Shown: positions 3,252 through 28,843 of the stretch, one piece after another
Layout: each line of letters begins with the position of its first letter
Position numbering within the stretch: the first letter of the stretch is position 1
Origin: Candidatus Helarchaeota archaeon
GTDB lineage: Archaea > Asgardarchaeota > Lokiarchaeia > Helarchaeales > RDOG01
Assembly: GCA_019058315.1 (NCBI GenBank)
Contig: JAHPZH010000002.1
Span: 704,001 to 768,000 of the forward strand
DNA length: 64,000 nucleotides
Direction of reading: 5' to 3'
Notes under the pieces: generated by a model
Seen by the model: only the letters and a program-made list of their open reading frames with translations
What the model was told of the DNA's origin: nothing
The model's database searches: none
Translations under genes and position numbers: made by a program

Positions 3252-4415
3252 TTAAGATTTATATTGGGGTAAATATACCACTTGAACATCACGATTTTCC
3301 ATCTCTTGAATGGCTTTCTTATTTTCTTCATCCTCAAGGTTTATATAATTATCGTATAATTCGACACTCTTTAATTTTGTAAGGTTTTCTAAGCCTTCAA
3401 TTTTCGAGATTTTATTTGAATCCAGATATAGTGTCTCTAATTCTGTGAGATTATCTAAACCTTCTATCTTTAAAATTCTATTAGACATTAAACTCAAAAT
3501 TTTTAAATTTACTAAATTTTCTAATCCCTCAATCTTCTCTATTTGATTTAATTGTATATTAAGGTATTCCAGGTTCGTTAACGCTTCAAGCCCTTCTATT
3601 TTTTTAATTTTATTTGTATCAAGGTATAATTTTTTTAAAGTTGTTAAAGTTTCCAAACCTGATATTTTTGGTAACCAACAATCTGAAAAACTCAATTCTT
3701 CCAAATTCTTTAAATGTCCAATATTTTCTATAGTTCCTAAATTGCATTCAGAAATAACCAATTTTTTTAGGTTAATTAAATTATCCAGACCTTTTATTCC
3801 TTCAATATTCCTCCGCCGTGATGTTAACCATAGTTCTTCGAGGTTAGTTAAAGCATCCAATCCTTCGATAGTAGAAATGTTATTATCTGATAATTCGAGA
3901 ATTTTAAGGTTTTTTAAGGATGATAAATTTTCTATCTTTTCTATTTGATTTTCTCTTAGATTAAGTGACTCTAAATTCGTAAGATGCTCTAATCCTTCTA
4001 TTTTTTTTAGATAAACTCCCTCTGAACCACAACCTTGTAAATTTAGTATTTTTAAATTTTTTAAATTATCAAGACCTTGAATTTTTTTAATCTTTGTGTA
4101 TTGCAAATTTAAGGATTCTAGGTTTTCCAAAGCTTCTAATCCCTTTATTTCTGAAAGATCAAAATTTTCATAAAGGTTAAGATATCGAAGACTCGTTAAT
4201 TTTGAAAGAAGTGTCATATCATTAAAATTAGCTGCTCTTAATCTCAAACCAGCTACTTTTCCATCTTCTATGTATATAGCCAAATCTTCAGATGATTTTC
4301 TCTTAAACATTACATAATTATCAAATATTTTAAACCATTCTTCTGTCTTTTTAGTATGTTTAATTATTAAATCAAGATTTTTTCTTTCTTTATCCTCTAG
4401 GTCATTTAAGCTCAT
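3252..4415 (-). CDS. Leucine-rich repeat protein (SDS22-like)
   Basis: About 13 LRRs; GAGGTGA Shine-Dalgarno upstream; paralog of 5540-6703. Confidence 0.95.
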   Translation of the reverse strand: MSLNDLEDKERKNLDLIIKHTKKTEEWFKIFDNYVMFKRKSSEDLAIYIEDGKVAGLRLRAANFNDMTLLSKLTSLRYLNLYENFDLSEIKGLEALENLESLNLQYTKIKKIQGLDNLKNLKILNLQGCGSEGVYLKKIEGLEHLTNLESLNLRENQIEKIENLSSLKNLKILELSDNNISTIEGLDALTNLEELWLTSRRRNIEGIKGLDNLINLKKLVISECNLGTIENIGHLKNLEELSFSDCWLPKISGLETLTTLKKLYLDTNKIKKIEGLEALTNLEYLNIQLNQIEKIEGLENLVNLKILSLMSNRILKIEGLDNLTELETLYLDSNKISKIEGLENLTKLKSVELYDNYINLEDEENKKAIQEMENRDVQVVYLPQYKS

Positions 4416-4503
4416 GAAAAATCACCTCTTGTTGAAATTTTATAATTATATCTGTCTATTAATTCCTTGGGAGTAAATATACTACTTTATCTTCTTTTAT
4501 AAG

Positions 4504-5493
4504 TTAATCATCATCATTATCATAGACAAATACTTGACGATTTCTTAATTTTATTATCAATTTTTTTGATTTAGAGTCTAAATTCTGAATATTGCGTAAT
4601 CTTAATTCACGTAATAATGATAAATTAATAATTGATTTAGGTATAGTTGATATTTCATTACTAAATTCTAAGTTTTCCAGCGAGGATATATTACATATTG
4701 ATTCAGGGAAAGAGGTAAAAAGATTATGATTTAAATTGAGGTATTTAAGAGATTTTAAATTTCTTATTGACTCGGGGAGGTTTCTTAATTGATTATAACT
4801 CAGATGAACAATTTCCAAACTTGAAAGATTGCCAAATGATTCTGGAATTGTCTTTATTTGATTATCATTTAAATCTAGGTACTTAAGTAAAATTAAATTA
4901 CCAATTGAATCAGGAATCATAGATATATATTGATTGTTACCCAAAAGCAAATATCCAAGCATAATTAATTTATCCATTGAATCAGGGAGACTCTTTATCT
5001 GATTTTCAGATATATTTAAGTCTCTCAATTTTGTAAGATTACCAATTGATTCTGGTACAGTTGTTAATAAATTGGTTGCTAAACTTAACTCCTCTAGAGA
5101 TGTTAATTTCGAAATAAATTCTGGATATTCCGATAATCCATTAGCTGCTACATTTAATTCTTTTAAATTTATTAATTCTCCAATAATTTCTTGTAAAGGG
5201 TTTAATTCATTACCACCTAATGATAATTTTTCAAGTAATACAAGATTAGCTAATGAATCTGGTAATTCTGTCAACTTATTAGACCCCAAATCCAGTTCAT
5301 TTAGCATTTTTAGGTTACCAATTGAATCGGGAAGAGTTTCTAATTCATTATAATTTAAAAAAAGCTTCTTAATTAATTTAAGATTCTCCAAACCTTTTAC
5401 TTCATTTAAATCACTTATCTTCTTTTCTTTTAAGTTTAAAACCCCATTTTCTACATAAAATCTTTCTCCATTATATTCCACAAATTCATTCAA
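4504..5493 (-). CDS. Leucine-rich repeat protein (23-aa LPxSIGNL type)
   Basis: Repeats LxxLPDSIGNLxxLxxLxLxxN. Confidence 0.95.
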   Translation of the reverse strand: MNEFVEYNGERFYVENGVLNLKEKKISDLNEVKGLENLKLIKKLFLNYNELETLPDSIGNLKMLNELDLGSNKLTELPDSLANLVLLEKLSLGGNELNPLQEIIGELINLKELNVAANGLSEYPEFISKLTSLEELSLATNLLTTVPESIGNLTKLRDLNISENQIKSLPDSMDKLIMLGYLLLGNNQYISMIPDSIGNLILLKYLDLNDNQIKTIPESFGNLSSLEIVHLSYNQLRNLPESIRNLKSLKYLNLNHNLFTSFPESICNISSLENLEFSNEISTIPKSIINLSLLRELRLRNIQNLDSKSKKLIIKLRNRQVFVYDNDDD

Positions 5494-9700: not shown

Positions 9701-10147
9701 TTATGATTGAATTTTATCCCATTTTTCACATTCTACATATAAATCCATCCTTTGTCCAGAAGGCTTTATTTTTAGCTCTGAAATAATCATATCCCATAAT
9801 TGTTTGATATTTTTTGATTCGTAATCTAATATTTTTCCACATTTTGGACATATAATGTTTATATGAGGTGAAATATTTGGGTCGAATCTTGAGCGGTTTT
9901 CAGCAAAATTTAGCTCTTGGACTAGTCCTAAATCACTAAGTAGATGCAATGTTTTATATACCGTTGCTAAGCTGATGGTGGGATTATTTTTTATTACTTC
10001 ATGATAAATCTCTTCAGCAGTGGGATGATCCTTACTTGAAAGGACAAATTCACAAATTTTTAAACGTTGGGGTGTTACTTTATATCCCTTTTCATGAAAT
10101 TTTGAAATAAGTTCTTTCCTACTTATCGATTTTTCCAAAAAATTCAA
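9701..10147 (-). CDS. Fur/PerR family transcriptional regulator
   Basis: TPQR, HPTAEEIY, SLATVYKTL, HINIICPKCG motifs; divergent from katG. Confidence 0.92.
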   Translation of the reverse strand: MNFLEKSISRKELISKFHEKGYKVTPQRLKICEFVLSSKDHPTAEEIYHEVIKNNPTISLATVYKTLHLLSDLGLVQELNFAENRSRFDPNISPHINIICPKCGKILDYESKNIKQLWDMIISELKIKPSGQRMDLYVECEKWDKIQS

Positions 10148-10241
10148 CTTTTTTTTAATGACTATTCAATTATTCTATATCTCATTAATATATGATAATT
10201 CTTAAATAATAATTTTTCTTTATAGATATTAAATACTAACG

Positions 10242-10260
10242 GATAATGATTATTATTAAC
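10242..10260. promoter_or_regulatory. Fur-box-like operator
   Basis: GATAATGATTATTATTAAC matches 16/19 positions of consensus GATAATGATAATCATTATC; lies between the fur-like gene and katG. Confidence 0.6.
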
Positions 10261-10307
10261 TAATTTTATATTCCTCGTAAATTATAAATACAAACAATCG
10301 TTGCAAA

Positions 10308-10326
10308 CTCAAAAATAATCATTATC
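10308..10326. promoter_or_regulatory. Second Fur-box-like operator
   Basis: CTCAAAAATAATCATTATC, 14/19 match; 10314-10326 is the exact reverse complement of 10242-10254. Confidence 0.5.
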
Positions 10327-10355
10327 TACTTTTAAATATTTTAAAATAAAAATAG

Positions 10356-12551
<2,196 letters not shown>

Positions 12552-14388: not shown

Positions 14389-15438
14389 TTGCTTGATGTT
14401 TGGAAGTTATTTGGGTTAGGATTTACTTTTATATTATCCAATTATTTAATTATTGTATTTTTTTATTTCATAAAAAAGATATATGGAAGTAAAAAATCAA
14501 TAAAAGAAATTTTACCTTTTTTAGGAATAGCCTTTTTGTTCTTATTTGGTGGTATATCTTATATTTTTGCTAATTTTTTTGATTATTTTCAATGGCAATA
14601 TGATCTAAAAATATTATTCTACTTTAGACTTCATTCTATTCTCTATTTCTCAAGTATCGCTTCTTGTATCTTTGTGTATGAATATGTTATTAAAAAGACA
14701 AAATATCTTCTAACAACTTATATTGTTATTGGTTTAATAGCAAATTTCATTGTTTACAGATATGAAGATTTAAATTTCTTATTAAACTTTTTTTTAGGCT
14801 CTGCTGTACCAATTCTATTGATTCTTCAATATGTGGTATTCGTTAGACCAACATCTGGAATGTTAAAACGCCGAATGAATTTTAGTCTAGTTGGTTTAAT
14901 CTGTGCTGGAGTTGGCAGTGCATTAAGGAATTTTTTTATAAATGAATTGTTGGGCTATTATATATTTTCAATAGGCACATCGATAGTAATTATCGGATTG
15001 TTATTAATGGCTTATGGATTTTCGGCATTTTCTACCCTAACTGATTTAAATTGGAAAGATAAATTACATCAACTTTATGTGGTTACGGAAGATGGAATTT
15101 GTCTTTATGCATATTCCTTTGAAAATAATCTTCCTATAGCTAATTCAAACCTACTTGCAGCAGGTTTTTCAGGTATACAAAAATTATTATCTGAAATATT
15201 AAAAACAAAAGAAGCTCTGAGGATAATTGAATATAAGCATCTAAATATTCTTGTTGATTTTAGACCAAATATTGTAGTTTTATTAGTTATTACTGAACAT
15301 AGTGCATTTCTATTTTATAAATTGAAAGAATTCGCTGAAAAATTTTCCAATTTTTTTAAGGATTTATTGATAAATTGGCAAGGGAATACAGAAATATTTA
15401 CACCTACCAAATCTCTTATTCAGAGCACATTTGAATGA
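14389..15438 (+). CDS. 7TM membrane protein with C-terminal longin domain (copy 1)
   Basis: Seven hydrophobic segments, then LYVVTEDGICLYAYSF...LLAAGFSGIQKLLSEI...F...F...WQGNTEIF longin pattern. Confidence 0.8.
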   Translation: MLDVWKLFGLGFTFILSNYLIIVFFYFIKKIYGSKKSIKEILPFLGIAFLFLFGGISYIFANFFDYFQWQYDLKILFYFRLHSILYFSSIASCIFVYEYVIKKTKYLLTTYIVIGLIANFIVYRYEDLNFLLNFFLGSAVPILLILQYVVFVRPTSGMLKRRMNFSLVGLICAGVGSALRNFFINELLGYYIFSIGTSIVIIGLLLMAYGFSAFSTLTDLNWKDKLHQLYVVTEDGICLYAYSFENNLPIANSNLLAAGFSGIQKLLSEILKTKEALRIIEYKHLNILVDFRPNIVVLLVITEHSAFLFYKLKEFAEKFSNFFKDLLINWQGNTEIFTPTKSLIQSTFE

Positions 15439-15490
15439 AATTTATGATTATACATCAAATCTTATTGAATTACATTAAAAATGAATCAAA

Positions 15491-16558
15491 ATGATATATC
15501 AATTAGATTTTTGGAAAATGATGAGTTTAGGAATAACTTTTATCCTAATTAGCAATACAATATTCTTATCTCATTATTTTATAAATAAAATATACCAAAC
15601 TAAGAAATTTAAATCTGAAATATTGCCTTTTTACGGAATAACTTTTTTATTTTTGTTTGGAAGTGTCTCATATATTTTCGCAATTATATTTGATTTTTTT
15701 CATTGGTATTATGATCACTCAATATTAATTTATTTCAGATTACACCTCATATTTTATGTTCTAAGTGTAGCCTCATGTATTTTCGTATATGAGAACGTTA
15801 CTAAGAAAACAAAATATCTTCTAACAATTTATATGATTGGTGGATTGGTAATAAATTTCTTTATATTTTCATATAAAGGTTTAAATTTATTTTCTAATTT
15901 CACATTTGGATTAGGTTTGCTAATTTTATTGATTCTTCAATATGTTGTATTCGTTAGACCAACTTCTGGGATGTTAAAACGTCGGATGTATAGTGCTTTA
16001 ATTGGTTTAATTATTATTGGATTTGGAAGTTTTTTAAGAAATCCTACTATAAATGAAGCGTTTGGCTATTACCTTTTTTCAATGGGCACTTTACTAGTAA
16101 ATTTTGGAGTATTATTAATGGGATTCGGATTTTCCGCTTTTTCAACATTTACTGATCTTAATTGGAAGGAAAAATTACATGAGATTTTTATATTAACAAA
16201 AGATGGACTTCTTTGCTATGCATACTCATTTGATGTTGATCAGAAAATGAATGGCTCTGAACTACTTGCAGCTGGTTTTTCAAGTATACAAATTTTCCTT
16301 TCTGAAATATTAAAGACAAAAGATGATTTGCAAATTATAGAATATAAAAATTTAAATGTTATTCTTGAATTAAAAGGGAATATTGTTTTTGTTTTAGTCA
16401 TAAAAGAAAAAAGCTCATTTCTAAAACACAAATTAGGAGAATTTTCTCAAAAATTTTGCGAAATATTTACAGATTCATTGAAGAATTGGAATGGAGATAT
16501 GGAAATATTTTATCCTACCAAAAATTTAATTCAAAATATATTTGAATTAAATAAATAA
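15491..16558 (+). CDS. 7TM membrane protein with C-terminal longin domain (copy 2)
   Basis: Clear paralog of its neighbours with the same architecture. Confidence 0.8.
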   Translation: MIYQLDFWKMMSLGITFILISNTIFLSHYFINKIYQTKKFKSEILPFYGITFLFLFGSVSYIFAIIFDFFHWYYDHSILIYFRLHLIFYVLSVASCIFVYENVTKKTKYLLTIYMIGGLVINFFIFSYKGLNLFSNFTFGLGLLILLILQYVVFVRPTSGMLKRRMYSALIGLIIIGFGSFLRNPTINEAFGYYLFSMGTLLVNFGVLLMGFGFSAFSTFTDLNWKEKLHEIFILTKDGLLCYAYSFDVDQKMNGSELLAAGFSSIQIFLSEILKTKDDLQIIEYKNLNVILELKGNIVFVLVIKEKSSFLKHKLGEFSQKFCEIFTDSLKNWNGDMEIFYPTKNLIQNIFELNK

Positions 16559-16667
16559 TTTCATAGATTAAACTAAAAGCTACCAAATCTCTTATTCAGA
16601 GCATATTTGAATGAAATTTATGATTATAAATCAAAATCCTATTGAATTACATTAAAAATGAATCAAA

Positions 16668-17735
16668 ATGATATATCAATTAGATTTTTGGAAAATGATG
16701 GGTTTAGGAATAACCTTTATCCTAATTAGTAATGCTATATTTTTATTTTATTATTTCATAAGTAAAATATACCATAGTAAAGAATATAAATCTGAGATTT
16801 TGCCCTTTTACGGAATAACTCTTTTATTTTTGTTTGGTGGTCTCTCATATATTTCTGCAATTATATTTGATTTTTTTCATTGGTATTATAATTTAACAAT
16901 ATTAATCTATTACAGATTAAACTTTATATTTTATGTTCTGTGTGTAGCTTCATGTATTTTTGTATATGAAAACGTTATTAAGAAGACAAAATATCTTTTA
17001 ACAATATACATGATTGGTGTGTTGATAATTAATTTCTTCATAGGAACATTTGAAGCTTTAGTCTTATTCGCTAATTTCACTTTTGGGTTTGCTTTAATAA
17101 TTTTATTAATTCTTCAATATGTTGTATTCGTTAGACCAACTTCTGGGATGTTAAAACGTCGGATGTATAGTAGTTTAGTTGGTTTAATCATTATTGGCCT
17201 TGGAAATTTTTTTAGAAATCCTTCCATAAATGAAACGATTGGTTATTATATTTTTTCATTAGGCACTTTACTAATAAATATTGGAATATTATTAATGGGA
17301 TTCGGATTTTCTGCTTTTTCAACATTTACTGATCTTAATTGGAAGGAAAAACTTCATCAGATTTTTATACTAACAAAAGATGGACTTCTTCTCTACGCTT
17401 ATTCATTTGATGTTAATCAAACAATTGATGACTCTGAATTACGTGCAGCTGGTATTTCAAGTGTCCGAATTTTCCTTTCTGAAATATTAAAAACAGAGGA
17501 TGATTTACAAATTATAGAATATAAAAATTTGAATGTTATTCTTGAATTAAGAGATATTGTTGTCTTTGCTTTAGTCATAAAAGAAAAAAGCTCATTTCTA
17601 AAACACAAATTAGGAGAATTTTCCCAAAAATTTTGCGAAATATTTAGAGATTCATTGAAAAATTGGAATGGAGATATGGAAATATTTTATCCTGCAAAAA
17701 ATTTAATTCAAGATATATTTGAATTAGATAAATGA
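16668..17735 (+). CDS. 7TM membrane protein with C-terminal longin domain (copy 3)
   Basis: Same length (355 aa) as copy 2 and highly similar to it at DNA level. Confidence 0.8.
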   Translation: MIYQLDFWKMMGLGITFILISNAIFLFYYFISKIYHSKEYKSEILPFYGITLLFLFGGLSYISAIIFDFFHWYYNLTILIYYRLNFIFYVLCVASCIFVYENVIKKTKYLLTIYMIGVLIINFFIGTFEALVLFANFTFGFALIILLILQYVVFVRPTSGMLKRRMYSSLVGLIIIGLGNFFRNPSINETIGYYIFSLGTLLINIGILLMGFGFSAFSTFTDLNWKEKLHQIFILTKDGLLLYAYSFDVNQTIDDSELRAAGISSVRIFLSEILKTEDDLQIIEYKNLNVILELRDIVVFALVIKEKSSFLKHKLGEFSQKFCEIFRDSLKNWNGDMEIFYPAKNLIQDIFELDK

Positions 17736-21314: not shown

Positions 21315-23933
21315 TTATTTTATTATATCAAATAATGAACTGACTTTAAAAACATCTATAATTTTTACACCTGAAATTTGAGTCTTTATAAAATCTGGTA
21401 AACTTATTCTTAATATTATTACTCTTGATTCTGTTGGTTTTAATGAGAAATAATTATCAGAAGCAATTAAATCCACAATTTCAGAATAGATATATACATA
21501 GAGTGCAATATTTTTTGAAGTTATAGTCATAGAATAATAGCGTTCATTTTTATTATTTGAATTAATTTTTTTAATTTTATAAGAAAGACCAGGATCCTTT
21601 AAAGGAAAATTTTTTGGCTTCTCAAATAGCCGGAATCCATAGAATGGTTCAAATCCATTCTGTTCACTATCTTCAAGAGAATAAAAAATAATATTATTGC
21701 ACATTTCCTCTCTTGTTTTGTTTATAACTTCTACATCAATAGTCTCAACCAATAAAGAAGAACACGGAGGGATTTCAACCTTTTTTAAACCATTTATGAG
21801 TGTTTTTCCTTCTGCATTTAGAATGCTCCAATTTAATGTTCCCTTTTTAGAAACCCTTAAATCATTTATTACCCAAAGCTCGACTTTTTTTGGTTCTTCC
21901 ATAGCACTAACAAAGAAAGGTTGATATGCTCTTTTAGCAATATAATGTAAAGCTTTCCAGCGACCATAATAATCTAATGAAGACCAACTTGCAACCGGCC
22001 AACAATCATTCAATTGCCAATAAAGAGACCCCATACAGTGGAATTCATTCCTATTTCTCCTCCAATGCTCAATTCCATACTCTATTGCTTCAGCTTGAGT
22101 AATTTGTGAGAGAAGGACTTGATGCTCAAAATTTTGGGGGAATAAAAAACGCTTTTTGATATATCTCTTAATTTTTTTATTGCCTGCCCAGTTTTTTTGA
22201 TGGCTTTTCATTATAGGCGAATTGAAATGGTATTGTTCAGGTGGAGAAAATGTTTCAATAGTCTTCATTGATGGAAATGATTGAAAACCATATTCTGACA
22301 TAAATCTAGAGTTGAATTCTCGATAGGCTGTAAAGGGAGCACCGTTATGCCAGACCTGCCAAAAATGAGAATCACCTTTATTTGGAGTATTTGATTCTAT
22401 ATAACCTCTTTCCTTCTCACCACCACCATTGGAAGGTGAACTTGGCCAATAAGGATGATTGGGATCATATTTCTTAATTAACTCTGGCAATATCTTTTCA
22501 AATATTTCAAAGTAGCTTTTCTCAAATTTAGCTATGTCCTTAGGGTCTTGAATTTCAGATATACCAACTAAAGATGAGAATAAAAATTCATTTTCATTAT
22601 TTCCACACCAAAGAGCTAAGCTAGGTCTATGTCTCAATCTCTTAATATTTTGAATTGCCTCAATCTTAACATTTTCATTAAATTCACTGGTTGGTGGGTA
22701 AACTGCACAAGCAAACGAAAAATCCTGCCAAACCAAGATGCCTAAACTATCACAAATATCGTAAAAAAGATCATCCTCATAGATTCCCCCTCCCCAGATA
22801 CGAATAAAGTTCATATTAGCTTCCTTAGCATAGTTTAGAGTCATTTGATAAAGCCCTAATTTTTTACCACGAGGAATGAAACTATCTATTGGAATCCAGT
22901 TTGCACCCTTAGCAAAAACTGGGACTCCATTTAACAAAAAGTAAAAAGTTTCACCCCAGTGATCCAGTTCTCTTATAAGTCTGATATCTCGAAATCCAAT
23001 TTTAAGATTCTGTGAATCAATTTGGTCTTTATCATGTATTGAAACCTTTAATTCATAAAGATTTGGGGTGCCGAGGTCATGTGTCCACCACAATTGTGGA
23101 TTGCTAATATCCATCTCAATTGTTTGATTTTTGTCTTTAAGAGTAACACTCTTTGAGTGCTGTATTCCATCAGGACTAGTTAATTCAACCTTAATTTTAT
23201 ATCCTAAAGACTCTATATCATTTAGTTTTGAACTTATCTCGAGATTTACTTTGAGATTAACTGTCTCAACATTAATTTTTGAAATTTCTTCCGAATTCTT
23301 AATTTTCAGGGGGTCTATATTGTATTTAAATTTCTGAACTGGATAAATTGAATCAATTTTTAGCTCATTGTACCCAATTAATTCTACCGACTTCCAAATT
23401 GCAATATCCGGCAGTTGAGGACCCCAATCCCAACCAAAGGAGAATTGAGCTTTTCTTAAATATGGAATTCCTAGCAGAGAGTCAGCAGCTCTTAATTTGA
23501 ATTTATGTTTCTTTATTTCTTCTAAAGCGTAATTGGTTGGACTCTTTATAATTACTTTTAACTTATTTATTCCTTCTTTTAACTTAGATTTTACATCGAT
23601 ATCATAACTAACAAACATATTATTAGTGTGCCCGAGCAACTCATTATTTAAATAAATTTCAGCAATAGTATCTATTCCTTTGAATCTGAGAAGGATATTC
23701 TTACATTCTAAAAACTCAGCATTTATTACGAATTCTTTTTCAAACTTCCAATCAGAATTATAAACCCAAGCCACTTTAGATTCATTTTCACCATAAAATG
23801 GGTCCTCAATTTTTTGATTTATTAATAAAGCTTCAAATACAGACTCTGGAACTTCGATAGGTATATTAATATTTCTTTCTTCTTGTGTTAACGTCCATTC
23901 TCCATCTAAAGAAATCAATTCCATAATTATCAA
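21315..23933 (-). CDS. Beta-mannosidase, glycoside hydrolase family 2
   Basis: RKAQFSFGWDWGP, KGANWIP, RIWGGGIYE, WCGNNE, FMSEYGFQS, YWQLNDCWP motifs; no signal peptide. Confidence 0.95.
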   Translation of the reverse strand: MIIMELISLDGEWTLTQEERNINIPIEVPESVFEALLINQKIEDPFYGENESKVAWVYNSDWKFEKEFVINAEFLECKNILLRFKGIDTIAEIYLNNELLGHTNNMFVSYDIDVKSKLKEGINKLKVIIKSPTNYALEEIKKHKFKLRAADSLLGIPYLRKAQFSFGWDWGPQLPDIAIWKSVELIGYNELKIDSIYPVQKFKYNIDPLKIKNSEEISKINVETVNLKVNLEISSKLNDIESLGYKIKVELTSPDGIQHSKSVTLKDKNQTIEMDISNPQLWWTHDLGTPNLYELKVSIHDKDQIDSQNLKIGFRDIRLIRELDHWGETFYFLLNGVPVFAKGANWIPIDSFIPRGKKLGLYQMTLNYAKEANMNFIRIWGGGIYEDDLFYDICDSLGILVWQDFSFACAVYPPTSEFNENVKIEAIQNIKRLRHRPSLALWCGNNENEFLFSSLVGISEIQDPKDIAKFEKSYFEIFEKILPELIKKYDPNHPYWPSSPSNGGGEKERGYIESNTPNKGDSHFWQVWHNGAPFTAYREFNSRFMSEYGFQSFPSMKTIETFSPPEQYHFNSPIMKSHQKNWAGNKKIKRYIKKRFLFPQNFEHQVLLSQITQAEAIEYGIEHWRRNRNEFHCMGSLYWQLNDCWPVASWSSLDYYGRWKALHYIAKRAYQPFFVSAMEEPKKVELWVINDLRVSKKGTLNWSILNAEGKTLINGLKKVEIPPCSSLLVETIDVEVINKTREEMCNNIIFYSLEDSEQNGFEPFYGFRLFEKPKNFPLKDPGLSYKIKKINSNNKNERYYSMTITSKNIALYVYIYSEIVDLIASDNYFSLKPTESRVIILRISLPDFIKTQISGVKIIDVFKVSSLFDIIK

Positions 23934-24045
23934 TTAGGCTATTCAAATTAAATGTTTAAAGAATTTGAGAAAATATTACTATTCCAAATTATTTAATTTA
24001 TTTAAACTATGTAGAAGAAGATAAAGTGTCTCGTTATTAAACAAT

Positions 24046-24384
24046 TTATTTACTAAAATAACGCTCAGCAGAAAAGCTTTTTCCCTGTGCTATAATAACA
24101 CACGTTCTTTTTTCGGGAGTTATTGTTATTGTAGCACTTTCGATGACTTCAAGGGGAATACCCTCCTTTTTTAAAACATTATGAAACCACTTGGACATTA
24201 ATTTATAATATCTTTCTACGTCATCCCCTTCCATATCAGGGGTTAAAGTACCACTAATCAAGTCAACAATAATTTTTCTTCTTGGTCTAAAATGTTCAAA
24301 TGGGTAGTTACCAAATCCTTCTGGGTTCCACATTGAGGATCTTAATGCGTTATTAGCTACTGACCTTAATCTTATTAATTTCAT
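24046..24384 (-). CDS. Hypothetical protein
   Basis: 112-aa ORF with ATG start and protein-like composition. Confidence 0.65.
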   Translation of the reverse strand: MKLIRLRSVANNALRSSMWNPEGFGNYPFEHFRPRRKIIVDLISGTLTPDMEGDDVERYYKLMSKWFHNVLKKEGIPLEVIESATITITPEKRTCVIIAQGKSFSAERYFSK

Positions 24385-24455
24385 GTTTGAATAAATGAAA
24401 TTATTATATTTAAAATTAATTTGATTTTATTAACTTTATAAAAAGAAGATATGAA

Positions 24456-25355
24456 TTGGTTTTAATGGAAAAAATTAATGAAATTGAAGATGAACAAGAA
24501 AAAAAAGCCATTATTGAGTTATGGAATAATTTTAACTGCTGGGATGCTCCATTGAATCAGGTGGGATTTGAAATCAACGAGAAGGGACAAATAAAATTAT
24601 TGAGACTAAATAATAGAAAAATAAAAAAGATTCCTAACTTTATTGCTAATTTTTCAGAGCTTAAATATTTAGATTTATATTATAATAAAATCCGTAAAAT
24701 AGAAATACCAAATAATCTTAAGAAATTGAAGCGATTATATCTTGGAGGAAATCTCATTACTAAAATCGATGGCCTAGATAATTTTTCACAGTTGAATGAA
24801 TTAGCTATTTATGGAAATCGAATTTCAAAGATTCAAAATATCAATCATTTATCTTCCTTATTATCATTAAATCTAAATGGTAATAATATTACACAGATTG
24901 AAGGTTTAGATAATCTTATTCATTTACAAGATTTAAACCTGAATTCTAATAAAATTACAAAGATTAGTGGGTTAAATAATCTTTTTAATTTAAAGAGATT
25001 ATTATTGGATAATAATAGAATTACAAAAATCCAAGGATTAGAAAATCTAACTCAATTACAAGAAATTAGTCTAACAAATAACGAGATTATAAAAATCGAA
25101 GGGATAGAGGAACTTGATAACTTGGAAAGTATTTCACTTTTAGGAAATCCACTTTCAGAAATAGATAAGAAAGTCTATCATAAGGGTTTAATTGCTTTAA
25201 AAAAATTTTCTAGACAAAGGAAAATAGATGATTGCATAAAAAGAATAAAAGAAATACAAGAAATATTGAATTTGGGTAAGCTAAAATTAGATAATTATAA
25301 CATTTTAAATCAAGAACTTGAAGAACTACAGAAAAAAATTAAAGATTTCAAATAA
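24456..25355 (+). CDS. Leucine-rich repeat protein with C-terminal coiled coil
   Basis: SDS22-like LRRs ending GNPLSEIDKKVYHKGLIAL. Confidence 0.93.
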   Translation: MVLMEKINEIEDEQEKKAIIELWNNFNCWDAPLNQVGFEINEKGQIKLLRLNNRKIKKIPNFIANFSELKYLDLYYNKIRKIEIPNNLKKLKRLYLGGNLITKIDGLDNFSQLNELAIYGNRISKIQNINHLSSLLSLNLNGNNITQIEGLDNLIHLQDLNLNSNKITKISGLNNLFNLKRLLLDNNRITKIQGLENLTQLQEISLTNNEIIKIEGIEELDNLESISLLGNPLSEIDKKVYHKGLIALKKFSRQRKIDDCIKRIKEIQEILNLGKLKLDNYNILNQELEELQKKIKDFK

Positions 25356-25492
25356 AAAGGAGTTAAATCAATGGGATCTTCATTAATGTCAATTATAAAT
25401 TTTACAAATAAGAAATTACAAATATATAAAAAATAGGAAGGAAAAAATAATAATACAATACCAACATTCTTAAAATTCTGGGATATACAAGA

Positions 25493-26011
25493 ATGACAAT
25501 ATACAGATTTAAAATAGTTATTGTAGGAGATTATGGAGTAGGTAAAACATCATTAATAAATCAGTATGTTACCCAAAAATTTAAAGGAAGTTATATTCCC
25601 ACTTTGGGAGTACAATTCACTAAAATAAGTTTAAAAGCAAGCGATGATGAGGTTGAATTAATCCTTTGGGATATAGCTGGTCAAGATAGCTTTTTTAAAA
25701 TTAGACAGAGATTTTATGATAATACTCAAGGATTCATAGTTGTATACGATATTACAAGAAAATCCTCTTTGGAAAATATTAAAAATTGGTATGATGATGT
25801 CACGGCGCACACTGGGAAATTACCTTGTCTTTTACTTGGCAATAAATCTGACTTAACAGAAAGAAGAGTTATTAATAAGGAAGATGTAAAGGAAATTATT
25901 GAAAAACATGAAATGAATTTTATTAACTTTTTTGAAACCTCAGCAAAAACTGGAGAAAATGTGAAAGAAAGTTTTGAATCAATAGCTAAAAACATATTAA
26001 AAAATATATAA
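25493..26011 (+). CDS. Rab-like small GTPase (Ras superfamily)
   Basis: G1 GDYGVGKT, G2 YIPTLG, G3 WDIAGQ, G4 NKSD, G5 ETSAK; no prenylation tail. Confidence 0.97.
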   Translation: MTIYRFKIVIVGDYGVGKTSLINQYVTQKFKGSYIPTLGVQFTKISLKASDDEVELILWDIAGQDSFFKIRQRFYDNTQGFIVVYDITRKSSLENIKNWYDDVTAHTGKLPCLLLGNKSDLTERRVINKEDVKEIIEKHEMNFINFFETSAKTGENVKESFESIAKNILKNI

Positions 26012-26037
26012 ACTATTATTATTTCGATCTTCCAGAG

Positions 26038-27138
26038 GTGTATGAAATAAATAAACCGTATTTTTTAAGCATAATAAACCCTTCAGGAATATGTTTATTC
26101 TTATATTGCTTTAAAGAAGATTTTGATGTAACAGAATTTCAACTTTTTAGTGGTTTTATAACAGCCATTATTAAATTCTCAGAAGAATTAAATGAAAAAA
26201 TTGGGTATAGCAAGGAGGATGGACGAGTTCCTTCCATTCCTCTTAATTTAAATTTTGAAATTCTGATCTCATATAATGAACCCCTAATTGGTTGTCTTGT
26301 GGCGGAAAGAAAAGATTATGATGAGGATATGAAAATTTTTCTTAATGATGTATTAGATGAATTTCTAGAAATTAATGGTGAAAATCTCAAAGATTTTAAT
26401 GGTGATATTGGGACATTCGATCGTTTTAAAGATGAAATCGAAAGAATTTTCAGAAAAAGAAGCATTTTTTCTTATCAAATCCCAAAAATGAGAACAGACC
26501 AAACCAAGAGGATATCGCTGAAAGAAAATTTCTTAGATTTAATTGATTTGATAGATGGTAAGAGAGACATTAAACAGATTTCTCAAATTTTAAAAAAGGA
26601 AACAGAAAAAATAAAAGACATGATTTCACGATTATTATGGCTTGAAATGATAAATTTAAGTGCTAAAGTCTACGAAGATGATGTTTTTGAACCAAGAAAA
26701 GACTTATTTCAATTAATAAGAAGCAGAGAAATTGATCCAGAAAAGAGAAAAGAAAAAGAAAAACATTTAGAGGAAAAAGCATCCGAATTTGATTTATTAA
26801 ATGCCATTGATGGATTCAAAACTGTTCTTGAACTTGATAATGACTTTCCTAACTTATCTTCTGATGAGATAAAACGAATTTTATCATATTATCTCTCTCA
26901 AGGATCTTATCTTGAGAAAATTGAGCTGTACCCACAATTAATCAATATTAATGATAAACTTATTGAGAATTTATCCGATGAAAGCCTTGCACTATGTTAT
27001 TCATTGGAAAATATTTGTGAAGGAGATCTATCATTAGCAGAAATTTCAGCAAGAATTGGTATGCCAATTAATGAAATAAAAAAAATGTTAAATTTTATGG
27101 GAGATCATGTAACATATATTAAAAAATCTGTTAAATAA
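26038..27138 (+). CDS. Longin plus triple winged-helix protein, NPRL2-like
   Basis: N-terminal longin ([27 protein letters not shown]), then three wHTH-like units ([32 protein letters not shown]). Confidence 0.75.
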   Translation: [366 protein letters not shown]

Positions 27139-27166
27139 TAGATTAATACATTGCAAATAAAATGGG

Positions 27167-27847
27167 TTATGATATAACCTTGCTTCTTTCTATAATCCAA
27201 TTATTTAATCGCTGAAAATCCTCCTCAACAAAATAATTACATATTACTTCTTTGAATTCCTGACTTAAAATTTTATATCTTTTCCTATCACCAGATGAAA
27301 AATAATCCAAAATGAAGAATATAAACTCTTTACTGTCTTCGGGAGCAATTTCTACAAGGGCTTTAATTATTTTTTTTCTAAGCTTTAGACTAAAATCAAT
27401 TGGATCTACACCAGTTTCAATCAAACGTTTTATTGCTTCAATTAGGCATTTTTGAATGCCCTTTTCAATCAAAGATTCAACAAATGACTTTGATGCAATA
27501 AAATATTCTCCTGGAGCTAATAAATCACGTAAATCAGGACGTTTTTCAATAGGGATTTCTTTATAATCAGGCTCATAATTTTCATTAAATTTAAATTGAC
27601 CTATTGCAAAATGAGTAAGATTAAAATAAGAAAATTTTTCTCCCTTTCTCAATAGAACCAAATTCTTTTGTATTTTTCCATTTTTAATTTCTGTAAGGGC
27701 ACATATGTCTATCCCCTTTTCTTTTAAAAAATCGTCATTAATAGGAATATAACACTTTTCAAAAATATAATACCCTTTTTCTTTATCTACAACCCTTCTC
27801 TCATTTTTTTCGATACGATCTAACCAATCATCTGTCAAAAGAATCAA
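27167..27847 (-). CDS. Hypothetical protein
   Basis: 226-aa ORF; no motif recognised. Confidence 0.65.
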   Translation of the reverse strand: MILLTDDWLDRIEKNERRVVDKEKGYYIFEKCYIPINDDFLKEKGIDICALTEIKNGKIQKNLVLLRKGEKFSYFNLTHFAIGQFKFNENYEPDYKEIPIEKRPDLRDLLAPGEYFIASKSFVESLIEKGIQKCLIEAIKRLIETGVDPIDFSLKLRKKIIKALVEIAPEDSKEFIFFILDYFSSGDRKRYKILSQEFKEVICNYFVEEDFQRLNNWIIERSKVIS

Positions 27848-27895
27848 GTTCTATAATTTTTATAAATTTAAGAAATATCATCGTTTATACAATTG

Positions 27896-28843
27896 TTATT
27901 CTTTTTCTGCATCCTTAATTAATTCTTTTGCTGCTTCTTTAACTATTTCTTTTAAATCTTCTTTTTCTAATTTGCTAATCTTCTCTTCTATGTCCTCTTC
28001 TTCTTTAGGTTTCTCTTTTTTCGTTTTTTCCTTCTCTTTTTCCACTTTATCTTCTTTTTTCTTGTCCTCTCTAGCCTTCTTAACCTCTTTTAAATACTCA
28101 GCAGCTGCTTTATCTTGTTCAGAGAGGTTTGTTAATATCTGATCCATCATTTTTTCTGGTATTTTTTCTTTATATTGCTTTATTTTAGCTAAAAATATCT
28201 CAAATTCCTCTTTATTCATCTCTTTATCCGAAAATCTTAATAATAATTCAGGAAACTGGACGAGTAATTTTGGAAATTCATCTAAATTTGACCAGAATTC
28301 TAAGAATTCCAATCCAATAGTACTCTCTGAAACATGTCCCCAGTCTCCAATAATGACGTAATCAAATAATTCTTCCATCAAGTAACTAATTACCGACATT
28401 AGCAATTTTGAGTAATTAAGATTGAAGCTATGTGTTCCTTTAATACTGATATGATCTTCTCTTTTTATTTCATAATTGAGACTGTCTAGCCACATTAAGC
28501 CATTATTTCCAAGCTTTTTAATTAAAAATTGAAGAAATTCTTCGATATCAAAGTCTTCTTTCAATAAATCGAGTTGTAAATGAGCAAAATCGAGAAAGTT
28601 TTTTGCTGAATCTATAGAAATTTCTTCTAAAAGATCTTCTTCTATATCTTCTAATACCTTATTAAGCAGAGTTTTCTCAATAATGATCATGTTCTGATTG
28701 CGTGAATTAACAATTATATCTAACCATTCATAAATTGCTTTTCTAGCTATTTGATTAGTTGTTATATTCTGACTATTTGCTAATTTCTCTAATTCTTTAA
28801 AAATTTCTTCGGATATCCTGAGACCTATTAATTTATTAGGCAT
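27896..28843 (-). CDS. Ribbon-helix-helix regulator with V4R-like domain and charged tail
   Basis: LIGLRISEEIFKELEKLA...QIARKAIYEWL (CopG-like RHH); GLMWLD...IKGTHSFNLNYSK central domain; E/K-rich tail. Confidence 0.7.
   Translation of the reverse strand: MPNKLIGLRISEEIFKELEKLANSQNITTNQIARKAIYEWLDIIVNSRNQNMIIIEKTLLNKVLEDIEEDLLEEISIDSAKNFLDFAHLQLDLLKEDFDIEEFLQFLIKKLGNNGLMWLDSLNYEIKREDHISIKGTHSFNLNYSKLLMSVISYLMEELFDYVIIGDWGHVSESTIGLEFLEFWSNLDEFPKLLVQFPELLLRFSDKEMNKEEFEIFLAKIKQYKEKIPEKMMDQILTNLSEQDKAAAEYLKEVKKAREDKKKEDKVEKEKEKTKKEKPKEEEDIEEKISKLEKEDLKEIVKEAAKELIKDAEKE

Follow-up and report, generated by a model that had tools for sequence, protein, structure and literature searches.

Asgard genomes contain dozens of small GTPases and of longin and roadblock proteins, and which regulator belongs to which GTPase is largely unknown; since the GTPase genes are generally not found in operons with longin or roadblock genes (Tran et al., PMC10933270), matching them is hard. 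The question is raised by a pair of genes in a stretch of 64,000 nucleotides from a Candidatus Helarchaeota archaeon (GenBank assembly GCA_019058315.1, contig JAHPZH010000002.1, positions 704,001 to 768,000 of the forward strand), here called the window, where the gene of a small GTPase is followed by that of a protein of 366 amino acids (aa) resembling NPRL2 and NPRL3 of the GATOR1 complex. Which GTPase does such a protein serve, and what does it do to it? NPRL2-like proteins of Asgard archaea have already been published; the variant described here is an NPRL2/3-family protein paired with a Rab-like GTPase. GTPase and partner genes are conserved together and duplicate together, the two proteins pass a prediction of binding, and the predicted interface is specific enough to be mutated. 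The pair is therefore open to direct reconstitution, which makes it a rare testable example in Asgard archaea. That the NPRL2/3 fold is tied here to a Rab-like and not to a Rag GTPase, through a predicted winged-helix and not a longin contact, bears on the origin of the GATOR1, folliculin and C9orf72 complexes, which act as GTPase-activating proteins (GAPs).

Homology of the 366-aa protein to NPRL2 and NPRL3

The 366-aa protein is encoded by an open reading frame (ORF) at 26038..27138 on the + strand, stop codon included, with a GTG start that is backed by two 86%-identical homologues (P0002 and P0003) beginning at the same point, M-D/N-E-I-N-K-P-Y-F. With the single sequence, Pfam recognises only a generic winged helix (HTH_47, 4.5e-7, residues 151-205), NCBIfam gives no match, and phmmer against PDB returns noise only. 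The family is small: clustering at 90% identity gives 52 groups, and at 50% identity (E up to 0.001) there are 41 representatives. A profile built from 30 of its sequences and searched against PDB finds human NPRL2 (6ces_N) at E 1.4e-4, in a single colinear alignment that covers 160 positions (profile 143-302, NPRL2 172-338); two designed-repeat proteins slightly outscore NPRL2, through repeated short matches only. In the HMMER alignment the IDG...ISxLLW block faces an NPRL2 segment ending in NLLYYGVV, and the ylekveLyP block faces LIRRLQKYP. A preliminary description of the window, made from the sequence alone, had given three alignments with NPRL2; HMMER reproduced two of them, while the third lies beyond the HMMER alignment and is covered by the structural alignment, which runs to residue 380. 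Pfam NPR2 (PF06218) has no match in the window protein at E up to 1; it is found in two of the 30 family members. Among homologues it scores 31.1 bits against a cut-off of 27.5 in P0012, which is 55% identical to the window protein and in which the match covers the winged helix 1 region, and 21.4 bits in P0173. Weak HTH_NPRL3 matches occur in seven of the 30, on the last winged helix. A longin-only profile searched against PDB retrieved neither a longin nor NPRL2, so that the NPRL2 sequence signal resides entirely in the C-terminal half.

The AlphaFold2 (AF2) model of the 366-aa protein (predicted local distance difference test score, pLDDT, 83; predicted template modelling score, pTM, 0.77) presents a longin of beta1-beta2-alpha1-beta3-5-alpha2-alpha3 topology at residues 9-139 and, C-terminal to it, three units at about 146-220, 243-303 and 304-366, each made of three helices and beta strands. 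The ORFs and this model agree with the earlier view of the locus: a complete small GTPase and, 26 bp on, a 366-aa protein in which three winged helices follow a longin. On the DNA, the longin domain (residues 4-142, delimited from the AF2 model, VIA and column counts) occupies 26047..26463 (+). Winged helix 1 (residues 146-220; 26473..26697, +) contains the IDGK...ISxLLW block, which corresponds to NPRL2 residues ~200-235, and the Pfam HTH_47 match. Winged helix 2 (residues 243-303; 26764..26946, +), preceded by an acidic low-confidence linker at residues 236-244, contains the LyP/KYP block of the NPRL2 alignment that reaches residue 338. Winged helix 3 (residues 304-366; 26947..27135, +) bears the Y-S-L-E-N-x-C-x-G motif at residues 321-329, and its structural alignment extends to the NPRL2 C-terminus. 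Here L317, L319, Y321, S322 and E324 are conserved in at least 90% of the sequences and L323, N325, C327 and G329 are invariant, helix 317-325 being among the most conserved segments.

With the full model as query, the best 13 Foldseek matches are all NPRL2, NPRL3, Npr2 or Npr3 chains (2.7e-11 to 1.9e-6), and generic longins follow from 5e-4. The C-terminal half alone (pLDDT 85) returns the same proteins at ranks 1-15 (2.8e-9 to 5e-3), with the next family at 9e-3. A wide VIA search with the C-terminal half, independent of Foldseek, places NPRL2 8fw5_B first (Z 9.6, root-mean-square deviation, rmsd, 9.7), with 180 residues aligned (model 4-221 against chain 172-380), and yeast Npr2 third (Z 8.6). 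Over model residues 5-295 the NPRL2 chain 9v0j_A reaches Z 11.4, but with an rmsd of 14.5; the high rmsd values and low TM-scores against NPRL2 reflect differing inter-domain angles. Since NPRL2/3 chains fill the top ranks of both fold searches, clear of the next unrelated matches, the likeness is more than chance. The longin alone is generic: its VIA scores against longin and roadblock folds range from Z 14.2 (rmsd 2.5, 125 residues aligned) down to 11, with TRAPP Bet5/Trs23 at 14.2 and 13.2, Sec22b among the best rigid matches (Z 13-14), Fuzzy at 13.0, MglB at 11.7-11.9, Mon1/Ccz1 at ~11.3 and LAMTOR close behind. The full-length colinear homology to NPRL2 that had been proposed is thus borne out by the profile, Foldseek and VIA, as a distant one, and we are highly confident that the 366-aa protein is a true but remote member of the NPRL2/NPRL3 family.

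The Rab-like GTPase

The gene directly upstream (25493..26011, +, stop included) starts with ATG and encodes a GTPase of 172 aa with a complete set of G1-G5 elements: GDYGVGKT, switch I Thr37, DIAGQ with Gln64, NKSD and TSAK. Its Pfam match to Ras (2.4e-51) far exceeds that to Gtr1_RagA (2.3e-5). In PDB the best 60 matches are all Rabs, from 7e-35 to 8e-30 (Rab35, Rab2, Rab1, Rab14 and others), the closest being Rab35, Rab2A, Rab1A and Rab14 at 7e-35 to 6e-34, and relatives at NCBI are labelled 'Rab family GTPase'. The partner is therefore Rab-type and carries no fused roadblock domain, as the preliminary description had stated. The C-terminus (...AKNILKNI) has no prenylatable Cys, and for this reason the GTPase is called, from its sequence, Rab-like and not a canonical eukaryotic-type Rab. 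Its P-loop codons (residues 12-19; 25526..25549, +) include Tyr14 (codon 25532-25534) in the motif GDYGVGKT, a Tyr found in 34 of 40 members of the GTPase family. By the GxxxxGK[ST] register we take Tyr14 to be the equivalent of Ras Gly12; it is unusual for Rab-like proteins and could alter the approach of any GAP finger. Other Rab-like proteins of Asgard archaea are likewise without a C-terminal cysteine (PMC10933270).

Conservation and distribution of the gene pair

Many contigs hold close homologues of both proteins. Thirteen close family loci were fetched (numbered L001 onwards): in 10 of them the GTPase gene lies directly upstream on the same strand, and in an 11th one gene stands between, so that the conserved linkage anticipated in the preliminary description holds in 11 of 13. 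The source genome (5.8 Mb, 12 contigs, the window being C5:704001-768000) has three full-length NPRL2-like paralogues, 51-54% identical, each with a Ras-family GTPase upstream on the same strand: besides the window pair, the paralogue at C5:554591 begins 17 bp behind the gene of a roadblock-GTPase fusion, and that at C1:523201 has its GTPase upstream with one 214-aa gene between. None of the three adjoins any of the Rag-like GTPases, of which the genome has at least 23. Tandem GTPase/NPRL2-like double pairs occur in L014 and L040. The closest relative of the locus, L038, permits a direct comparison (window 21315-28843 against L038:3447-10821): the flanking genes (GH2 mannosidase-like, 112-aa, 226-aa and 315-aa) are 79-92% identical, and the block of a leucine-rich repeat (LRR) gene, the GTPase gene and the NPRL2-like gene is inverted between the 112-aa and 226-aa genes in the window relative to L038, a local rearrangement that left the pair intact and moved it as a unit. 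The identity matrices of the GTPase and its partner correlate (Mantel r 0.77, with 0 of 5000 permutations as high), a correlation to which shared genome ancestry contributes. On these grounds the two proteins very likely form a cognate, functionally coupled pair.

A subfamily of ~27% identity (L016 and L043) shows the reverse order, the NPRL2-like gene being followed by two GTPase genes. The first of these (L016:2549-3076 and L043:2296-2829) encodes a divergent GTPase-like protein of 176-177 aa that matches the family model only at E 1e-14, and the second a normal Rab-like GTPase; the divergent protein may be a pseudo-GTPase or a heterodimer partner.

The family is narrowly distributed. A specific C-terminal profile detects it in six of 161 genomes and three of 30 genera of the class, the source genome included, and the single-contig (closed) genomes of family f5 have no match to this profile, although a search of the same type recovered the positive genomes. 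Distant homologues (E about 1e-25 to 1e-30, with the longin and the first two winged helices aligned) are present in another four families of the phylum, where no GTPase adjoins them. Likewise, none of seven distant-homologue loci (E about 1e-27 to 1e-32) from other Asgard classes has an adjacent co-directional GTPase, and a deep conservation of the linkage was rejected on this basis; five of the seven do have GTPase genes at a distance of 2-6 kb, which were not counted as linkage because such genes are dense in Asgard genomes. A presence in three of 30 genera argues against a direct ancestor of GATOR1, and the ancestral status once proposed for the module is not supported, the family being found in only six of 161 genomes.

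Predicted complex

The full 366-aa protein was modelled together with the GTPase, GTP and Mg, using custom alignments. The complex scored 0.68 and each of the three controls 0.00. A score of this height was reached by 58 of 80 solved complexes and by two of 110 mismatched pairs, counts that apply only approximately here, since the custom alignments and the ligands depart from the calibration. The complex prediction suggested in the preliminary description thus speaks for an interaction. The runs agree in at least 97% of contacts, with a partner pLDDT of at least 89. On the 366-aa protein the predicted GTPase-binding surface lies in winged helix 3, formed by helix 314-326 and turn 338-342 (26977..27063, +). 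On the GTPase the predicted contacts are residues 26, 37-44, 57, 59, 70, 73-74 and 76, among them Phe42 and Trp59, with Tyr75 sitting between contacts 74 and 76; all of them except residue 26 fall in the segment of switch I, interswitch and switch II (residues 37-76; 25601..25720, +). The predicted contact surface therefore consists of switch I, the interswitch strands and switch II and leaves the longin uninvolved, and the P-loop and Gln64 are absent from the confident contacts. Switch I, interswitch and switch II form the surface by which Rab effectors read the GTP state. No solved complex between a Rab and a winged helix of the NPRL2-like family is known to us, and in our judgement the pass is therefore unlikely to reproduce a structure already solved. 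Taken together, the modelling indicates that the 366-aa protein probably binds the GTPase directly.

Effector, activator, exchange factor or DNA-binding protein

The explanation favoured here, to which we give about an even chance of being right, is that a cognate Rab-like switch is coupled to a non-catalytic, NPRL3-like effector or scaffold, rather than to a GAP or a guanine nucleotide exchange factor (GEF). The partner would bind the GTPase directly by laying residues 314-326 of winged helix 3 (YSLENxCxG) onto switch I, interswitch and switch II, and its longin, left free, would be available to dimerise or to recruit other longin or roadblock parts. For catalysis, GATOR1 depends on a longin loop that bears an Arg finger next to an Asn (human R78, yeast R84-N85; PMC8534245; PMC12999518), the Arg-Asn pair being essential in Npr2 (R84/N85; PMC12999518), and a GP motif before strand 2 is common to GAP-type longins (PMC12290439). 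Among the 30 sequences of the 366-aa family no Arg-Asn is conserved within residues 1-145; a GP motif is also missing: 29 of the 30 have Gly17 in the beta1-beta2 loop, and the position after it is taken by I, V or L, never by Pro. The beta4-beta5 connection (residues 80-82) is a tight three-residue turn with R in 0 of 30. The absence of a long Arg-finger loop, suspected in the preliminary description, is supported by these counts, and with neither Arg-Asn finger nor GP motif the 366-aa protein would most likely be non-catalytic.

A functional proto-GATOR1, in which the 366-aa protein is a true longin-type GAP, possibly a homodimer, and inserts Arg63 into the nucleotide pocket of the Rab-like GTPase, would accord with its homology to NPRL2/3 and with the properties of the GTPase, which retains Gln64 without having an Arg of its own in switch I and hence probably needs a GAP (argument as in PMC10933270). 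Of the Arg residues in the longin loops only Arg63, between alpha1 and beta3, is strongly conserved, no other loop position having R in more than half of the sequences. At position 63, R is found in 26 and K in three of the 30 sequences, with L/V/I and then P after it; in a 22-sequence subset Arg63 is invariant. In the longin topology the alpha1-beta3 loop lies at the same end of the sheet as the Gly17 loop. It is at this end that GAP longins bear the GP motif and the Arg finger (PMC12290439). We nevertheless consider such a GAP unlikely, since the Arg-Asn pair and the GP motif are both missing, the predicted interface includes neither the longin nor the P-loop nor Gln64, and Tyr14, at the Ras Gly12 position in 34 of 40 GTPases, would hinder a classical Arg finger if the analogy with Ras codon-12 mutants applies. 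A GEF built on a longin platform, as in TRAPP, Mon1-Ccz1 and Fuzzy-Inturned, appears quite improbable. Its attraction lies in the best rigid-body matches of the longin, which are of GEF type (Bet5/Trs23 Z 14.2/13.2, Fuzzy 13.0, Mon1/Ccz1 ~11.3), in weak Pfam Sybindin matches among family members and in the fact that longins serve more often as platforms of GEFs than of GAPs (PMC8534245); however, Sec22b, adaptor sigma subunits, MglB and LAMTOR follow within 1-3 Z units, which makes the match generic, the contact is predicted for winged helix 3, in a GTP-bound state whose switch regions are ordered, and no wedge residue for the nucleotide-free state was identified. The earlier suggestion of an effector or GEF rather than a GAP is therefore retained in its first part, a non-GAP effector or scaffold fitting the predicted interface, and not in its second, the GTPase being placed on winged helix 3 and not on the longin. 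That the three winged helices bind DNA, the protein being a transcription regulator gated by the GTPase, is highly improbable: Pfam HTH_47 matches, weak TrmB, IclR and HTH_5 matches, structural matches of single winged helices to MarR, AsnC and ArsR regulators (Z 6-7) and the mildly basic winged helix 1 (isoelectric point, pI, 8.2) would suit such a role, but the pI is acidic for the entire protein (4.8) as well as for winged helix 2 (4.1) and winged helix 3 (4.9), and the whole three-domain array is matched only by NPRL2/Npr2 and NPRL3/Npr3, in which these domains mediate protein contacts (PMC8534245).

Some observations weigh against a non-catalytic effector or scaffold dedicated to the adjacent GTPase. 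Residues G17, R63, P68 and N70 form a conserved patch at the loop end of the longin, where longin GAPs bear their catalytic residues, and a catalytic role through R63 is possible. Two of the 13 close loci have no adjacent GTPase, namely L002, in which only a 214-aa gene lies upstream of the NPRL2-like gene, and L042, whose contig ends just after the gene. The complex score expresses model confidence and is not a measurement, the alignments and GTP/Mg being outside the calibration of the tool; moreover, the interface set is not significantly more conserved than the remainder of the protein (0.74 vs 0.67), 17% of random sets being its equal.

Organisation of the locus and neighbouring genes

The two genes are separated by a spacer of 26 bp (26012..26037, +), whereas in L038 they overlap by 8 bp (GTPase 3447-3986, partner 3979-5073). 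Since the spacer has no room for a second promoter, we infer that they form a co-transcribed two-gene module; a TATA-like A/T-rich stretch lies ~60 nt 5' of the GTPase start codon. The window as a whole is AT-rich (GC about 0.26-0.32), and close relatives of its proteins bear NCBI names of Promethearchaeota, Helarchaeota or Lokiarchaeota metagenome-assembled genomes (MAGs).

An LRR gene (24456-25355, +; 299 aa, LRR_4 5e-39) lies on the same strand 137 bp 5' of the GTPase gene. It is missing from the equivalent position 5' of the pair in L038, L039, L001 and L040, and is for this reason probably outside the conserved module. A split Roco protein (LRR-Roc-COR) was also considered and rejected, as the LRR gene is not kept beside the pair; Pfam finds no COR domain in the pair, and the Roc match is a generic Ras-fold match. 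Further upstream, at ~15064-17723 (C5:719064-721723), there are three ORFs of ~353-357 aa in tandem, and in each of them a longin-like segment matches the N-terminal domain of the NPRL2-like proteins (E 1e-7 to 4e-6); in the whole genome 76 longin-type matches were counted. An island of GC 0.50 is present at 10001-12000, against about 0.26-0.29 on either side.

Sister modules and the 214-aa family

The related loci differ from the window pair in the additional components that they contain. In L001, L013 and L015 a 130-aa longin is encoded upstream of the pair. The GTPase preceding the C5:554591 paralogue of the source genome (L006:539-1483; C5, about 553.6-554.6 kb) is a 315-aa protein that joins an N-terminal Roadblock/LC7 domain (Pfam 2.4e-10) to a C-terminal Ras-type G domain, an order of roadblock and G domain that is reversed with respect to eukaryotic Rag GTPases. 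The 214-aa gene lies between the GTPase and the NPRL2-like paralogue in L004:833-1474 (C1:522533-523174) and directly upstream of the NPRL2-like gene in L002:4329-4970, and NCBI locus tags place it next to an NPRL2-like gene in four MAGs. Its family has 16 members, of which 15 were aligned; D-W-D-S-x-x-G-P behind the first strand and Arg78 ahead of a hydrophobic strand are both invariant, which is the combination of GP motif and Arg described for GAP-type longins. No match to the 214-aa family was found in Pfam, in NCBIfam or, by sequence, in PDB, hhalign against the NPRL2-like family gives a probability of 8.8%, and in Atlas the family is found in unnamed archaeal clusters only.

The motifs of the 214-aa family suggest a regulator made of two longins, with the NPRL2-like protein as its scaffold half. 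Extended further, the module would be an archaeal, Rab-coupled forerunner of the two-longin GAP complexes (NPRL2-NPRL3, FLCN-FNIP, SMCR8-C9orf72), in which the 366-aa protein, as a non-catalytic platform of NPRL3 type, captures the GTP-bound switch via winged helix 3 and its longin pairs with the catalytic 214-aa longin. We hold this reading to be rather unlikely; if true, it would imply that catalytic and scaffold longins had divided their labour before eukaryotes arose, and that the system first served Rab-like rather than Rag GTPases.

Comparison with known systems

In Asgard archaea, Liu et al. (bioRxiv 10.1101/2020.10.19.343400; Nature 2021) described a protein with a longin and an NPRL2-specific C-terminal domain from most Thor and a few Loki MAGs, and the window protein very probably is among these 'few Loki' members; among the asCOG categories, "NPRL2-like longin domain" has been applied to Candidatus L. 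ossiferum. The preprint's text on this family, in the portion available, reports no GTPase neighbour, motif analysis or binding mode, and the operon that it describes consists of LAMTOR1-like, Rab-like GTPase and DENN genes (bioRxiv 10.1101/2020.10.19.343400). Nor did the literature searched contain a report of a Rab pairing, of missing catalytic motifs or of a winged-helix interface. Asgard longins of FLCN/SMCR8 type, with a GP motif, have been proposed as relatives of eukaryotic longin GAPs with possible small GTPase partners (Traffic 2025, PMC12290439); they bear both GP motif and Arg finger, whereas the window protein has neither, and it is the 214-aa protein of the sister modules that has a GP motif and an invariant Arg.

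Among the components of GATOR1, NPRL2/Npr2, the catalytic longin subunit (PDB 6CES, 7T3B, 8FW5, 8ADL), shares with the window protein an N-terminal longin, a colinear winged-helix array reaching the C-terminus and the coupling to a small GTPase, and it is the best match by sequence profile as well as by structure. The aligned C-terminal halves are ~16-20% identical, while the longins have no detectable sequence similarity; NPRL2 carries the Arg78-Asn79 finger and the GP motif and the window protein neither, and the partner of NPRL2 is RagA/Gtr1, contacted through the longin, whereas that of the window protein is Rab-like and contacted, according to the prediction, through winged helix 3. NPRL3/Npr3, the non-catalytic paralogue, has the same architecture, is nearly as good a Foldseek match (5.3e-10 for the complete model and 5.8e-8 for its C-terminal half) and is, like the window protein, without a GP motif (PMC12290439). 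However, the sequence profile matches NPRL2 only, NPRL3 is much longer and has large insertions, and a heterodimer partner such as that of NPRL3 is not encoded at the window locus; the three paralogues of the genome (51-54% identical) could heterodimerise. The substrate differs as well, since GATOR1/SEACIT acts on Rag/Gtr GTPases with a C-terminal roadblock and the window GTPase is a Ras-type protein of 172 aa without one. The Iml1/DEPDC5 domain PF12257 has no match in the source genome (94% complete), nor in any control genome. The earlier name "proto-GATOR1" was thus an overstatement for a module that has no Rag partner in a genome so rich in Rag-like genes.

The bacterial MglA-MglB system, a Ras-like GTPase and its roadblock GAP, offers the remaining parallel, as here too a small GTPase is encoded beside a regulator of roadblock/longin fold, and MglB matches the window longin at Z 11.7-11.9. 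MglB, however, is a single-domain homodimer that touches MglA via the roadblock fold, whereas the window partner has three extra winged helices; and MglA carries its own Arg in switch I but lacks a catalytic Gln, whereas the window GTPase is Rab-like and retains Gln64.

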